Origin: a virus
Lineage: Duplodnaviria; Heunggongvirae; Uroviricota; Caudoviricetes
IMG/VR virus record: IMGVR_UViG_3300021431_000080
Location: 68,460-132,459 of that record
DNA length: 64,000 nt
Direction: 5' to 3' (one strand)
Of the stretch, positions 2,439-44,707 are shown piece by piece. The position numbers and the translations under genes are program-made. Positions within the stretch are counted from its first letter, which is position 1. The number at the start of each line of letters is the position of its first letter. The notes below the pieces were generated by a model. That model was given only the letters and a program-made list of their open reading frames with translations. It was not told the origin of the DNA and made no database searches.

Positions 2439-3218
2439 TTATTTTATCAGGTATTTGTCTGAGTATTCAATAATTCCTTGCAGATGAATCTCCGCTATAG
2501 CTTCCTTCCCTGTATCGCTTAACAGGAACTCAGTATCCTTTATATTAGTGTAGAATAGGTTTTCAGTCAGGACAGCTGGCATGTTCGCCACATAGATCAC
2601 GGTGAAGTTTTCCTCGTAGTCCCTGTCTCCGTCTGGTAACTTCTCAGTCCTTATTGTCATGTTGTGTTTCGGTAGTATCTTCTCCGCAGCGTTGTACAGG
2701 CAGTCGGCTAACTTGTCGGAGTTGTTCTGTCCTTTTGTAGTCCATGCACTCCAGCCTCTTGCGCTGTTCCACGACTCCCCTTTTCCGAATGCGTTTGAAT
2801 GTATAGATATGAACAGGTGTTTCATGCTAGGATTCTTTCCCTTGACAATGTTAGCCCTGTTTGCCCTTACTGTGAGTTTGATGTCTTCGTCCAGCTCATG
2901 GCAAACCATGTTCACCTTGAATCCATTTGATTCGAGTTTCTCTTTCAGTATTGAGGCAACTTCCCTGTTGAACTTGTATTCGTAGAAATCAAGTTCAGGT
3001 GGGACTTTGTTGGCTGCATACGGGGATCTCTTCCCCTTTGTCGACGAAGCGTGCCCGTTGTCGATATGCACCATGATGTTGGAATAATCGTTCATCTCTA
3101 TATCTGGTTCTGGTTCGTTTTGTTCAATGATTTCATTTGTTGTATCATCCTTTGTATCAATAGTTACAACATGTTTGTTGAACAAAGATATGATCCATTC
3201 TATGATTGTTTTCAGCAT
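2439..3218 (-). CDS. N-acetylmuramoyl-L-alanine amidase (Amidase_3-like endolysin)
   Basis: 259-aa ORF with VHIDNGHASS and ISIHSNA motifs, as in zinc amidase_3 cell-wall hydrolases. Confidence 0.55.
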   Translation of the reverse strand: MLKTIIEWIISLFNKHVVTIDTKDDTTNEIIEQNEPEPDIEMNDYSNIMVHIDNGHASSTKGKRSPYAANKVPPELDFYEYKFNREVASILKEKLESNGFKVNMVCHELDEDIKLTVRANRANIVKGKNPSMKHLFISIHSNAFGKGESWNSARGWSAWTTKGQNNSDKLADCLYNAAEKILPKHNMTIRTEKLPDGDRDYEENFTVIYVANMPAVLTENLFYTNIKDTEFLLSDTGKEAIAEIHLQGIIEYSDKYLIK

Positions 3219-28353: not shown

Positions 28354-28429
28354 GGTGGGTGAAACGGATATTGCAAATCATTCAAGACTCATAATCTTGA
28401 GATACACAGTTCGACTCTGTGACCAGCTA
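28354..28429 (+). tRNA. tRNA-Met/Ile2(CAT)-like with an atypical D-arm
   Basis: Anticodon stem CAAGA/TCTTG with loop CTCATAA; T-arm CACAGTTCGACTCTGTG; the D-arm and acceptor are poorly paired. Confidence 0.4.
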
Positions 28430-30184: not shown

Positions 30185-30339
30185 GGTTCCATAGTTCAAC
30201 GGATAGAACATCGGTCTTTTACAGAGTTGTTCACTGGGACGAACATTTCCTGTATTTCCAAACAGGTGGATAAATGAGAGTTCGAATCTCTATACAGGAA
30301 CCTAAACCGGTAATGAGCGTTCGATTCGCTCTGGGACCA
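30185..30339 (+). tRNA. tRNA-Lys(TTT)-like gene interrupted by an 83-nt insert after the anticodon loop
   Basis: 5' part GGTTCCA-TA-GTTC-AACGGATA-GAAC-A-TCGGT-CTTTTAC at 30185-30222. 3' part ACCGG-TAAT-GAGCGTTCGATTCGCTC-TGGGACC-A at 30306-30339. Insert 30223-30305 opens with AGAGTTGTTCACTGGGACGAAC, the same motif as the 24798 insert, and carries the minihelix TCCTGTA...GAGAGTTCGAATCTCTA-TACAGGA. Confidence 0.5.
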
Positions 30340-30375
30340 CTAATTTTTTCAACCAAATTTTCAACTTTCATTTTT

Positions 30376-33187: not shown

Positions 33188-33430
33188 ATGAAACTCGAAA
33201 TGACTCGCGGATGCATCTGTGACAGCCTGTCCATAGACGGCACACAAGAAATAGATCTCACAGATGAACAGAGAAAGGAAGTTATCAAGAAAGTATTTGA
33301 TTCGATGGAACCAGAGGACTTGAACTATCTTCTACAGTGGTATCTTCCTTACAAGGGCGACTACGAGTCGAGCGACAAGCCGTGTGAATGTTGCGGCGAT
33401 TTCATCGAGAGTTTCAGTTTGGAAATATAA
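33188..33430 (+). CDS. Small Cys-containing hypothetical protein
   Basis: 80-aa ORF with ...CECCGDF. Confidence 0.3.
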   Translation: MKLEMTRGCICDSLSIDGTQEIDLTDEQRKEVIKKVFDSMEPEDLNYLLQWYLPYKGDYESSDKPCECCGDFIESFSLEI

Positions 33431-33542
33431 ACAGGAAATTATAAGTTGTCTTGTGCCTTAAAGGGAATGAAAGGGCAAAAACAAGATAGGTGGAGAAATC
33501 GTGGATTCCCCTGCGTGCCGAGGTAAGTTTCCTGTTTTGTAT

Positions 33543-33686
33543 GAAGTCATGAAGCAGATAGGATGTGCTACTGCAGGAATTAGTAGTCGTTTGGATCTTG
33601 ATCAAGAGCCTCCACGATAGCAGAACTTGATTTCAGGGTAGACGAAAAGGATGCAGACTATGGTGGTTCGAATCCACTTGACTTCA
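33543..33686 (+). ncRNA. tRNA-like element with a distant acceptor pairing (GAAGTCA...TGACTTC) and a canonical T-arm
   Basis: GGTGGTTCGAATCCACT-TGACTTC-A at 33662-33686. The only 7/7 acceptor partner is 120 nt upstream (33543-33549). Lies within a 1-kb ORF-free, GNRA-rich region. Confidence 0.25.
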
Positions 33687-34411
33687 CAAAAGGTTTTCAA
33701 TTTTGAAAAGAGTTCTTTGAAAGAATAAAACCCAATGCTGCAAAGGTGTGCGAATCATCGGACTGCCTGCCAGAAGAACCTCTGGAGAACTGCAGACGCT
33801 CACACTTAATGTCTAAAATACCTCAAGACCTTTTATTGGTAATCTTGGCTCAAGGTAACAGCGCGAGAGAATAAGTCATTGCAGATGGTCACACGGATGA
33901 TGTCAGGCAGACATTGGGAAATGTTAATCTTGTCTTCGACGGATCAGTTAAACGGTTAAGCACAGGGGACGTAATTGCAGGGGAGACCCCTGCTTCCTGT
34001 AAAGGTTGGATGCCAAACGGTGATGACGGGTTCGAATCCCGTCTTCGTTGTTGATGAGATTGCAATATAAGGATGGAAGGAAAATATGCGGTTTGAAATT
34101 GTTCGAATGTCTCGTTCGGAAGTCAGTGTGTCCCACTTCTGGCACGGAGAAAGGCTTCCGATGAAAGAGAGAAGGAGGAATGGCAGTCGGACTCTTGCAA
34201 GAGTTTCATATCGTATTGACAGATTGTTTTGATCGAAACTGGTCGCCGCTACAAGATTGTCGCGGAGCAGGATAAGGAGACCTGCACATTTGTCTGAATT
34301 CCGTCTTTTATTTTGGAAGGTGAACTGTAGTGGTATTACAGCGCAGTCTTGAAAACTGTTGGGACATTTAGTTGTCTGGGGATCGTGCCCTCCGCCTTCC
34401 GCTTTCTTAAT

Positions 34412-34449
34412 TTTTACCTCCAAGGGTTCGAATAAATAAAGTAAATCGA
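34412..34449 (+). promoter_or_regulatory. Long hairpin immediately upstream of the GIY-YIG gene
   Basis: CCAAGGGTTCGA-ATAAATAAAGTAAA-TCGAACCTTTGG. Confidence 0.35.
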
Positions 34450-34460
34450 ACCTTTGGTGT

Positions 34461-35390
34461 ATGGAAAAGAAATATCATTATTTCTATAAAATCACAAATA
34501 CAAAAACTGGAAAATATTATTATGGTATCCATTCTACAAGCAATTTGAATGATGGATATATGGGTAGTGGGACACATCTTAAAATGGATTATGAAATTTA
34601 TGGGAAAGATGTATTTGTGAAAGAGATAATTAAATTTTTTGATACAAGAGAGGAAGCTTCTAAATTTGAAGCTAATGTTGTAAACGAAGATCTTGTATTT
34701 GATAAAGATTGTTATAACATTAAAATAGGAGGAGATTATGGGGTAACAACAAACACACTTCTTGTAGCAGATAAGAATGGTAGATATCATAGATGTACAC
34801 GTGACGATCCGAGATATATATCTGGAGAATGGAAGCATTTCTGTACAGGAATGTCTACTATGATAAACAAAGAAACAGGGGAAAAAGAATGGGTATCCGC
34901 TGAAATATATAGAAATAATAAAGACAAATATGCATCTATATTTAGCAATATGGTTCCTGTAATAGATGAAAACGGTGTATGTAAGCATGTTAGGGTTGAT
35001 TGCGAAGATATATTGACTGAAAAAGTGAAATATCTTTGGGATGGAAGAAAACACACAGAAGAGACAAAAGAAAAACAAAGAAAAACATTTGCAGAAATAC
35101 ATCATCAGCAAGGAGAAAAAAATTCACATTATGGAACAGTTTGGGTGTATAAAGACAAGGAGACAAAATGTATAAAGAAAGAAGACGAAGGTTTATACAT
35201 TAATAATGGCTGGAAAAAAGGAAGGTTTTTTGAAAAAGGAACATTTGATACACCGTCTGATTCCATTATAGATAAAAATGAACTTATAAAAATGAGAGAA
35301 AATAACATGTCTTGGTCTGAAATTGCGAAGCATTATGGTGTTGGAGAAAATACATTAATAAGGTATAGAAAAAGGCATGGTCTTTTGTAA
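34461..35390 (+). CDS. GIY-YIG homing endonuclease
   Basis: YHYFYKITNTKTGKYYYGIHS matches the GIY-YIG core. AT-rich, Lys-rich, with C-terminal NUMOD/HTH-like segments. Confidence 0.7.
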   Translation: MEKKYHYFYKITNTKTGKYYYGIHSTSNLNDGYMGSGTHLKMDYEIYGKDVFVKEIIKFFDTREEASKFEANVVNEDLVFDKDCYNIKIGGDYGVTTNTLLVADKNGRYHRCTRDDPRYISGEWKHFCTGMSTMINKETGEKEWVSAEIYRNNKDKYASIFSNMVPVIDENGVCKHVRVDCEDILTEKVKYLWDGRKHTEETKEKQRKTFAEIHHQQGEKNSHYGTVWVYKDKETKCIKKEDEGLYINNGWKKGRFFEKGTFDTPSDSIIDKNELIKMRENNMSWSEIAKHYGVGENTLIRYRKRHGLL

Positions 35391-35488
35391 GATGGAGAAA
35401 GTAGCCCTCTTACTACATCCGGGCAATTCAAAAAATAATTTGAGGTAGTTGACATTGGCACCGTTCGAAGATGTGAATGATGCATAAC

Positions 35489-35576
35489 GGAGAGGTGGCC
35501 GAGTGGTTGAAGGCACAGGTTTGCTAAACCTGCAGGCTCGAAAGGGTCTCGGGGGTTCGAATCCCCTCTCTCTCCG
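35489..35576 (+). tRNA. tRNA-Ser(GCT), type II
   Basis: GGAGAGG-TG-GCCGAGTGGTTGAAGGC, anticodon stem CAGGT/ACCTG with loop TTGCTAA, extra arm, T-arm GGGGGTTCGAATCCCCT. Confidence 0.65.
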
Positions 35577-35595
35577 CAAAAATGTACATATAAAT

Positions 35596-35895
35596 ATGGA
35601 TAGTGAAAAAAGTAAAAACTGGAAAGAAGAGATAGTTTCATATGAAAATCTCGACTGCAAGAAGGAAAACCAAATCTGGGTCGATGAAGTCTCTGTGACG
35701 TACTACCAGAACGGCGACTGCACGGAAAGCGATGACAATTGCCAGAAGATGACCGTGTCATCAAGGAACAACGGGATGGCAAGGTTCGTCAACATAAAGA
35801 CTTACGAGAACGGATGGAGTATTGATTCTCCAGATGGAATAAAGATGGTCTTAGAGGATTTCTGCAAGCGTGCAGGAATCGAAGGAATATGCTAA
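35596..35895 (+). CDS. Hypothetical protein
   Basis: 99-aa ORF downstream of tRNA-Ser. The track ORF begins inside the tRNA; the first ATG is at 35596. Confidence 0.35.
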   Translation: MDSEKSKNWKEEIVSYENLDCKKENQIWVDEVSVTYYQNGDCTESDDNCQKMTVSSRNNGMARFVNIKTYENGWSIDSPDGIKMVLEDFCKRAGIEGIC

Positions 35896-36247
35896 ATGGG
35901 GGTGTTCTGGATTTTGATGCGGGATTTTGAGTTGGCGCAAGCAAGCCGTGATCTGTACAAACTCACGTAAAACAGATGTGCGAAAGATAGTTGGCAACAA
36001 CACCTACAGACTCGCTGCCTGAAAACCGCCGAAAGGCGTGAAGGCTTAATCCTGTCCACAAGAGGTGAATAGGACGAGCGTTCCACAGAGAGTTTCTCTG
36101 TTTGTTTCTCTGATTTTGGAGCGTCATCGAAAACAGTGGTTTGAAGTATAATCTTTTAGTTGCCTGAAGTTCAGGATAAGCTTGTAGAAAACGTCCGCTG
36201 GATGCCGTAGACCGCAGTTCGACTCTGCGCACCTCCACAATAAATAT

Positions 36248-41263: not shown

Positions 41264-41319
41264 TTAAACGACAAAGAGAGTTCTTTGAAAAATAAAATCT
41301 GGATGCCAGGATCAAGCGT

Positions 41320-41393: not shown

Positions 41394-41559
41394 CAGTAGA
41401 CTGATAATTCGCTTGCCAGTATTCACCAGATTTTTTAGAAATAAACTTGGCATTGCCAGCATTTCGGATACATCGACAATCAATTTGACCGTTATGGTCG
41501 CACCAAAAAATTCGATATTGTAACAAAAAGTATGTTTAACCCTTTTTACCGAATGCGTT

Positions 41560-41800
41560 TTTACTTGCCGAGCACTTTACACCAGATGCCAGCTGAGAGT
41601 TTCATCGATTCGTCGGTTCGAATCCGACTTCACCCGCTCAAGGGAGAATGGCGAAATGGTATACGCGAAAGACTGCAGATCTTTTATCACAATGTTTCAC
41701 TCTCCGCAGTATTCACTGGTGTTATCTTAAAGCTCGGTTTCCAATGGAGATCGAGCTTTTTTATTTTAAAACATATATAATTATTAACTATAAACTGTAA
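41560..41800 (+). ncRNA. Candidate Y-RNA-like (YrlA-type) non-coding RNA upstream of the Ro60 gene
   Basis: ORF-free segment with a tRNA T-arm mimic (GTCGGTTCGAATCCGAC at 41616-41632) and GNRA loops (GCGAAATGG, CGCGAAAGA). Position matches the known rsr/Y-RNA arrangement. Confidence 0.3.
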
Positions 41801-44507: not shown

Positions 44508-44664
44508 CGGTAATATGGAGGTGTGGTGAAATTGGTAGACACGATGGATTTATATGAGAGTAAACTCTATTGACAAATCGTAACTGCATAGAGTGGGTTA
44601 AATTGGTTCGATTCCAATATGCAGTTCAAGCTCCATTGGGAAATCCGTGTGGGTTCGAATCCCA
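44508..44664 (+). tRNA. Type II (Leu-like body) tRNA with anticodon TAT, interrupted by a ~76-nt insert at 37/38
   Basis: 5' part GGAGGTG-TG-GTG-AAATTGGTAGA-CAC-G-ATGGA-TTTATA at 44508-44545. 3' part C-TCCAT-TGGGAAATCCG-GTGGGTTCGAATCCCAC-CACCTCT-A at 44622-44664. The insert carries the minihelix ACTGCAT-AGAGTGGGTTAAA-TTGGTTCGATTCCAAT-ATGCAGT. Confidence 0.45.
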
Positions 44665-44707
44665 CCACCTCTACTCAGAATCAGAGTTCTATTAATCAAA
44701 AAATAAA

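Follow-up and report, generated by a model that had tools for sequence, protein, structure and literature searches.

The gap between an 80-aa open reading frame (ORF) and a 309-aa GIY-YIG gene, at positions 33431–34460 of the DNA analysed here, is probably not the template of one RNA but a composite that forms the left portion of a strain-variable RNA-gene block linked to a Seg-like endonuclease. The DNA, referred to below as the window, is a 64,000-nt stretch of a tailed-phage genome (positions 68,460–132,459 of IMG/VR record IMGVR_UViG_3300021431_000080). We judge it reasonably likely that the parts of the composite are one verified non-canonical transfer RNA (tRNA), one probable tRNA-like gene, a tRNA fragment, a leader motif, spacers and a hairpin (Table 1). 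The region is not a GOLLD- or ROOL-like RNA and is probably not a group I intron. In a preliminary description, made from the letters of the window alone, it had been presented as a GNRA-rich, structured candidate for a large non-coding RNA (ncRNA) or an intron-like RNA. The general idea behind this, that the region is RNA-coding rather than protein-coding DNA within a tRNA neighbourhood, holds. The single large ncRNA does not, as folding is no better than in shuffled sequence over most of the region, which resolves into separate small parts.

Table 1. Features of the studied gap, its surroundings and the tRNA intron family (window positions unless a related locus, L, is named; folding z is relative to shuffled sequence)
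Feature	Position	Strand	Folding z	Remarks
80-aa ORF	33188–33430			Left flank of the gap
Segment 1	33431–33542	+	−1.2, not significant	Most conserved non-coding stretch
Strain-variable block, 2.17 kb	33437–35605	+		blastn breakpoints 33436 and 35606 against L066
Element A, probable tRNA-like gene	33543–33686	+	+0.05	
Leader motif AAGAGTTCTTTGAAAGAATAAAAC, 25 nt	33705–33730	+		Promoter-proximal
Segment 3			−0.16	
Perfect 7-bp hairpin GCAGGGG-AGA-CCCCTGC	33977–33993	+		
Element B, tRNA-derived 3′ half	33997–34050	+	−0.8	
Segment 5, spacer	34051–34314	+	−0.66	Long imperfect predicted hairpin
Element C, (8/4) tRNA-Ser(UGA)	34315–34401	+	−3.1 (34315–34402)	Sub-threshold Rfam tRNA-Sec, own model, covariation, literature
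12-bp hairpin CCAAGGGTTCGA / TCGAACCTTTGG	34418–34459	+	−4.4 (34403–34460)	2 nt before the ATG at 34461
Seg-like GIY-YIG homing endonuclease, free-standing, 309 aa	34461–35390	+		
Canonical tRNA-Ser(GCU)	35488–35575	+		Right-hand end of the variable block
Transfer-messenger RNA (tmRNA)	35898–36240	+		
Intron-bearing tRNAs, window	21624–21826, 24761–24916, 30185–30340, 44517–44674			
Intron-bearing tRNAs, relatives	L007 981–1172, 1892–2053; L017 283–436, 1465–1628; L021 1364–1504, 3816–3976			

Element C is an (8/4) tRNA-Ser(UGA), an already described type belonging to the allo-tRNA group and found in tRNA clusters of uncultured phages and rumen bacteria (Mukai et al. 2017, PMC5389517). Its 12-bp acceptor branch is divided between an 8-bp acceptor and a 4-bp T stem with the loop AUCGUGC (DNA ATCGTGC), and its 6-bp D stem carries a short loop (5 nt in the window copy). 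The anticodon loop is CUUGAAA (DNA CTTGAAA), with anticodon UGA, the variable arm is long, and a discriminator G was read from the sequence. The Rfam tRNA-Sec model gave it 37.1 bits, where the gathering score is 47. A covariance model built here from four family members (R1) gave it 60.7 bits (E = 2e-12), against about 32 bits for canonical tRNA-Ser genes. Eight further members of the family were obtained from a pattern scan of IMG/VR, and the related locus L017 has the same odd fold with a wholly different D-stem sequence.

Covariation with homologs, one of the checks proposed in the preliminary description, supports the fold of element C. In a 10-member alignment fitted to the model, a procedure that favours the structure, 97.5% of the cells pair and 17 of the 28 pairs change on both sides, while slid controls pair in 41–49% of cells. 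All six D-stem pairs change on both sides (96.7% paired), as do four of the eight pairs of helix 1 (100% paired). The 5-bp helix of the variable arm is likewise 100% paired, the four pairs of helix 5 are invariant, and the loop CUUGAAA is invariant across the homologs. C is predicted to be charged by seryl-tRNA synthetase (SerRS) and used in translation.

The rest of the gap did not behave as a folded RNA. The label ‘GNRA-rich’ was not borne out, with a raw count of 52 GNRA motifs against 52.5 ± 5.4 in dinucleotide shuffles; GNRA loops closed by a stem number 6, against 3.2 ± 1.8 (p about 0.11). Folding energy was better than in shuffles in just two short pieces, those containing tRNA C and the hairpin ahead of the endonuclease gene, and the term ‘structured region’ is thus right for these two and wrong for the other five sub-segments (Table 1). 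The smaller motifs that had been pointed out are real. The two T-arm mimics lie at 33662–33678 (GGTGG-TTCGAAT-CCACT) and 34026–34042 (ACGGG-TTCGAAT-CCCGT), the perfect 7-bp hairpin is present, and so is the 12-bp hairpin just before the endonuclease start. By our own arithmetic, roughly 0.4 perfect 7-bp hairpins with loops of 3–8 nt are expected per kb by chance.

The Rfam check that had been suggested gave no match in the region to GOLLD (RF01998), ROOL (RF03087), group I or group II introns. None of these was found in the whole window at the gathering score, nor between 33150 and 34700, on both strands, at E ≤ 10 (group I as RF00028); the models of group II intron domains V/VI also gave no match. 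The sole meaningful match at E ≤ 10 was the sub-threshold tRNA-Sec at 34315–34400, that is, element C, and the rest was noise. The 885 nt upstream of C (33431–34314) were found in near-identical strains only. They were not detected by nhmmer or blastn in 60 further loci, taken from the surroundings of homologs of the 80-aa flanking gene or of further (8/4) tRNAs, nor were they found in IMG/VR or the JGI metagenome collection. Nor are they a conserved element among the sister phages, where L066, L007 and L017 are without the stretch.

These results bear on the possibility that 33431–34314 is one new large structured ncRNA with tRNA-like modules, too divergent for Rfam. We consider this very improbable. 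It would suit the phage tRNA neighbourhood, the two tRNA-like modules inside and the strong conservation relative to synonymous sites described below, and Rfam models can miss divergent members. However, GNRA motifs are not enriched, no Rfam model matches at E ≤ 10, the sub-segments other than C and the hairpin fold like shuffles, and the stretch is absent from sister phages (68–90% identity) as well as from the related loci and the two collections. In addition, the internal promoter-leader motif suggests more than one transcription unit.

For group I introns, a limit of the Rfam search became apparent. The library failed equally to report the apparent group I introns, 190–220 nt long, in tRNA genes of L023, a related 410-kb phage; taken by itself, the negative Rfam result therefore says little against small group I introns. 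The L023 introns, of 222 nt in tRNA-Asn and 189 nt in tRNA-Leu(UAA) (at 1161–1454 and 2941–3215), show Azoarcus-like group I core motifs by eye, with RF00028 silent at E ≤ 1. No Azoarcus-type core motifs were seen by eye in the studied region. The case against a group I intron draws mainly on anatomy. The region is intergenic and interrupts no gene, and its only candidate inserts, of 76 nt (or 49 nt) in element A and 88 nt in element B, fall short of group I size (at least about 190 nt). On these grounds, an intron-like RNA is improbable.

Element A is a probable tRNA-like RNA gene. Its acceptor strands, GAAGTCA and TGACTTC, form seven Watson–Crick pairs, the 3′ strand lying 130 nt downstream. 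The other parts of the core are U8-G9, a D arm with the GG of G18 G19, a variable loop of 5 nt and a T arm of consensus sequence (TTCGAAT loop); a discriminator A and a CAA trailer follow, the latter the same as behind the genuine tRNAs of the phage. In place of a 7-nt anticodon loop, a stem CTGCA/TGCAG encloses a 76-nt insert (33576–33651). When the insert was replaced by an artificial 7-nt loop, the core was called by ARAGORN at default thresholds. In our own enumeration, no combination of insert ends within this stem yields U33; thus, A is not a decoding tRNA under the best-fitting fold, and it was filed as tRNA-like. In L019 and L067 (93.5% identical), A has eight substitutions, none of which breaks the acceptor, D or T helices. 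One of them (A33681G) turns an acceptor U-A pair into U.G, and three are C-to-U changes in predicted G-C pairs of an internal hairpin. Relatives of A or of B were sought by DNA or pattern searches in GenBank phages, IMG/VR and the JGI metagenomes, with none found.

In a different fold, offered by relaxed ARAGORN, A would be a tRNA-Gln(UUG) with a mismatched stem and a variable arm of 25 nt, interrupted by a 49-nt intron. The variants in L019 and L067 favour neither fold over the other. The call is unlike the tRNA-Gln of relatives and was not significant, and the Gln identity was rejected. Kinship of A with a 183-nt tRNA-like element of L007 and L017, described below, was also considered and set aside, the alignment being unconvincing.

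Element B is tRNA-derived, without a convincing 5′ half. It has a Tyr-type anticodon loop CTGTAAA, the stem strand GGTTG, a variable arm and a perfect T arm (34026–34042), and an acceptor/T-arm minihelix is also possible as a local fold (34016–34050). The best 5′ half requires an 88-nt ‘intron’, two acceptor mismatches in eight and a G.G in the anticodon stem. Relaxed ARAGORN, run with shuffled sequence upstream of B, still called some tRNA in 55% of trials, and Tyr(GTA) in 12%. Allowing G-U pairs made a systematic search for better 5′ halves too permissive to use. The notion that B is the missing tRNA-Tyr of the phage was rejected, as a real tRNA-Tyr(GUA) with a 127-nt intron lies at 21624–21826. 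B is therefore taken as a tRNA-derived fragment, since shuffles reproduce the calls and the real tRNA-Tyr(GUA) is elsewhere.

The ARAGORN results can also be read more favourably, A and B being genuine intron-containing class II tRNA genes, A a tRNA(UUG) with a 49-nt intron and B a tRNA-Tyr(GUA) with an 88-nt intron. Their introns, at the 5′ edge of the anticodon loop, would be a second intron type in a phage already splicing other tRNAs. Relaxed ARAGORN calls B in the window and A in L019, placing both introns at one unusual position; the joined exons of B pass the default thresholds, and A has a canonical AUUUGAU loop in L019 and L067. There are four other intron-bearing tRNAs in the window, and an interrupted tRNA-Tyr is known from Lak megaphages (10.1101/356790). 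Nevertheless, we regard this reading as rather unlikely. With good T arms and shuffled upstream sequence, ARAGORN (-i -ps) makes some intron-tRNA call in 50–55% of trials, and therefore such calls need independent support; the same anticodon returns in 12% of trials for B and 16% for A. The mismatches needed by B count against it, as does the good tRNA-Tyr(GUA) that the phage already has. Spliced A fails the ARAGORN defaults and would have to combine a Gln anticodon with a variable arm of 25 nt. Position 33 is C in the window copy, and with another stem partner the core of A fits a class I cloverleaf perfectly.

A bolder proposal is that A, perhaps together with segment 1 and B, represents a new phage RNA class built on a tRNA scaffold with a 76-nt module. 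It could be a decoy or inhibitor directed at host defences that target tRNA, or a precursor tRNA whose intron, at the 5′ edge of the anticodon loop, is of a type not described before. We hold this to be unlikely. If it were true, the full acceptor, D and T core of A would be recognisable to host tRNA enzymes.

The composite reading draws further on comparisons between strains, which place the gap within a 2.17-kb block that is present in the window phage and near-identical contigs. In L066, whose flanks are 90–91% identical, the place of the block is taken by 445 nt with a canonical tRNA-Ser(UGA) and a lipoprotein-like ORF of 62 aa. The flanking 80-aa protein has 25 homologs and is 68% identical in L017; in L007 and L017, a tRNA-Ser directly follows its gene. 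The canonical tRNA-Ser(UGA) of L007 has its first seven acceptor bases identical to those of element C.

Against L019 and L067, 33431–33717/33792 differs at 3.5–3.9% of positions, compared with 23–34% at third codon positions (Fisher p about 1e-13). The part of the block covered by these close strains is, by this estimate, changing approximately 6–9 times more slowly than synonymous sites. Divergence within the block is 2–6%, lowest in segment 1 (2 changes in 112 nt against L019 and L067) and in the core of A. For segment 5, L068 is identical, and there are no informative relatives.

The gene that closes the gap had been taken for a GIY-YIG homing endonuclease, and this was confirmed by a match to a homing-endonuclease family in PHROG (phrog_314, 8e-31). 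The protein is 34–35% identical to Seg/SegB-like GIY-YIG genes of T4-like phages, and 867 phage records match it, the best ones labelled Seg/SegB-like. At about 30%, the GC content of the gene is lower than that of the flanks (about 45%). The gene is absent from L066 and is thus a presence/absence polymorphism at an intergenic site. Relatives of the endonuclease were sought in IMG/VR in order to locate the homing site, and none was found there. The 12-bp hairpin here probably restrains translation of the endonuclease, by analogy with endonuclease genes of phage T4.

Under the composite reading, the stretch would be co-transcribed with the neighbouring tRNAs from a Bacteroidetes-type promoter near 30355, and perhaps from a weaker one near 33690. 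Host RNase P and RNase Z would cut the transcript at the tRNA-shaped elements. Processing would release an 87-nt serine tRNA, charged by SerRS via its long variable arm and G73 and reading UCN codons, together with a tRNA-like RNA of ∼144 nt (element A), while the hairpin beside the ATG would hold endonuclease translation low. In a co-infection, the endonuclease would cut genomes lacking it near this site, and repair would copy the whole block, RNA genes included, into the cut genomes.

Several observations weigh against this picture. Some 600 nt (segment 3, the surroundings of B and segment 5) are without informative relatives or an assigned role, and A lacks a usable anticodon loop under its best-fitting fold. 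The low divergence could come from recent spread of the block rather than from selection. There is an abrupt divergence step at ∼33420–33436, with 13 differences among the 28 nt immediately left of it, and other nearby spacers are as conserved (3 differences in 95). Finally, L017 has an (8/4) tRNA-Ser without the endonuclease, and the two are therefore not strictly linked.

The same observations invite the explanation that, apart from C, the 885 nt are non-functional debris, made of decayed tRNA genes and spacer that endonuclease-driven recombination brought with it, with conservation reflecting recent transfer. The sharp step at the left edge of the block fits this, as do the lack of the 885 nt in sister phages, the lack of significant folding and the missing 5′ half of B. 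On the other hand, the acceptor, D arm and T arm of A are flawless, the variants alter the insert only or keep the pairs, and A has the same N73-CAA trailer as the working tRNAs of the phage. The divergence of the block is moreover not zero but patterned, with its minima in segment 1 and the core of A. We think the debris explanation quite improbable.

The region is non-coding for protein. On the plus strand, the preliminary statement that there is no ORF was upheld, with a longest stop-free run of 59 codons against a shuffle mean of 81. On the minus strand it is not strictly correct, as a 155-aa ORF with a TTG start (33956–34423) sits within an open run of 167 codons, a length equalled in just 2.6% of shuffles. 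A protein-coding frame with a non-standard start had been named as a reason to abandon the RNA interpretation. This ORF has no Pfam or PHROG match and no homolog among 5.8 billion proteins, it was called as a gene in none of the source assemblies, and it is antisense to a tRNA; we judged it spurious for these reasons. Given the suppressor tRNA(CUA) of the phage, we also asked whether recoding of stop codons hides an ORF. All six frames contain TAA, TAG and TGA stops mixed, and therefore recoding cannot rescue one. The sole TAG-only stretch, 33471–33725, is broken in L019 by a 1-nt insertion and was rejected as a recoded ORF.

The window belongs to a 286-kb jumbo-phage contig (ENA ERZ12302815 NODE_23), identical copies of which are present in JGI and Logan assemblies; a DNA search of GenBank phages gave nothing similar to the window. 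Between 21 and 45 kb, the window carries ∼40 tRNA genes, a tmRNA and a suppressor tRNA(CUA), all on the plus strand. A promoter-like block of 45–60 nt, ending in ..GTATCTTTGCA.., is repeated at 20306, 20885, 30355, 41221 and 43488. The recurring motif has the form ..TTTG..(TA)TCTTTGCA.., which we take to be a match to the Bacteroidetes −33/−7 promoter consensus. Since the ..GTATCTTTGCA.. blocks match the Bacteroidetes −7 consensus, they suggest a Bacteroidetes host, and they would mark the transcription units of the tRNA array. The leader motif of the gap occurs again after a Bacteroidetes-type promoter, at 41276–41297, and also immediately upstream of the (8/4) tRNA-Ser of L017. Its recurrence hints at an internal transcription start. 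The suppressor tRNA, with anticodon CUA, lies at 26055–26126 (ARAGORN label ‘Pyl’), which may mean that TAG is read through in some of the genome.

Apart from the gap, the window and its relatives contain a family of tRNA anticodon-loop introns of 65–127 nt, mostly placed after nt 34 and each starting with AUAC(A/G)G (Table 1). Six aligned copies share a 27-nt H-type pseudoknot, made of CAG/CUG and a 5-bp stem, with 100% pairing and compensatory changes in 3 of its 8 pairs. Behind the pseudoknot comes either a tRNA-like minihelix or a tRNA-like fold that is nearly complete. The 3′ exon begins one nt (mostly C) past the minihelix stem, the expected position of an RNase Z cut. No Rfam ribozyme model matched the family. 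These are probably the ‘enigmatic’ tRNA introns of Lak megaphages (Devoto et al. 2019; preprint 10.1101/356790), and they are possibly the most interesting thing in the window. The tRNA-Tyr(GUA) at 21624–21826 was missed by Rfam and by default ARAGORN because of its 127-nt intron; ARAGORN reports the embedded tRNA-like piece at 21689–21777 as an odd tRNA. The gene at 44517–44674 is a tRNA-Ile(TAT) for ARAGORN. With an intron after U34, it is a class II tRNA-Leu(UAA), and its joined exons are called as Leu(TAA) at defaults.

Further unannotated tRNA-like elements were noticed at 22051–22126 and 22642–22778, with additional T arms at 28405 and 41612. Such elements have a perfect acceptor and T arm with an abnormal middle; one, of 76 nt, is without a D arm, and another, of 137 nt, has no recognisable anticodon arm. 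The 183-nt element conserved between L007 (1201–1384) and L017 (1870–2052) consists of an acceptor, a D arm, an insert of roughly 100 nt and a T arm. Its hairpin shows a compensatory change from CCCCC/GGGGG to CCUCC/GGAGG, and it has no Rfam match. A Ro60 ortholog (TROVE/vWA) begins at ∼41805, and upstream of it, at 41540–41780, are tRNA-like pieces, namely the T arm at 41612 and a weak tRNA match at 41642–41703. L007 has the same arrangement. These pieces could be the Y RNA partner of the protein, although the Rfam YrlA model gave no match upstream of the Ro60 gene. With a Ro60 gene in the phage, a Y RNA was also considered for the studied gap and rejected, A having the wrong topology and YrlA matching neither there nor beside the Ro60 gene.

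The analysis adds no new large RNA class. Its wider meaning is that ORF-free, structured-looking gaps in the tRNA arrays of jumbo phages can hide tRNAs that standard tools miss. For annotation, the (8/4) tRNA-Ser was missed by Rfam and by default ARAGORN, while relaxed intron searches over-call badly. A homing endonuclease appears to carry alternative RNA genes between close giant phages, one strain having a canonical serine tRNA and another an (8/4) tRNA at the same locus.

Among known systems, GOLLD and ROOL resemble the region in their phage or prophage setting near tRNA genes and in several hundred ORF-free nt; they differ in that the region has no covariance-model match at E ≤ 10 and no excess folding stability, and is not conserved beyond near-identical strains. 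Group I introns in tRNA anticodon loops, of the Azoarcus and cyanobacterial kind, have likely counterparts, by eye, in the tRNA-Asn and tRNA-Leu(UAA) introns of L023. In contrast, 33431–34460 interrupts no gene, the insert of A is 76 nt and there is no Rfam match. The likeness to Lak megaphages lies in a huge gut phage with many tRNAs and in anticodon-loop inserts of ∼80–130 nt with a tRNA-like fold, of which the window has four. The inserts of A and B are unlike these, being without the 5′ pseudoknot and the tRNA-like minihelix. In T4, SegB lies within the tRNA gene cluster. The window gene shares with Seg-type endonucleases of T4-like phages an intergenic place within a tRNA array, a low GC content relative to its flanks and polymorphism between strains; unlike in those phages, the block that differs between strains is not the endonuclease alone but 2.2 kb with three RNA genes. 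Element C agrees with the (8/4) tRNA-Ser of Mukai et al. in its 8-bp acceptor and 4-bp T stem, its long D stem like that of tRNA-Sec, its long variable arm, its G73 and its serine anticodon. What sets it apart is the jumbo-phage setting, the Bacteroidetes-type promoter motifs, the adjoining homing endonuclease and a locus at which sister phages have a canonical 7/5 tRNA-Ser(UGA).

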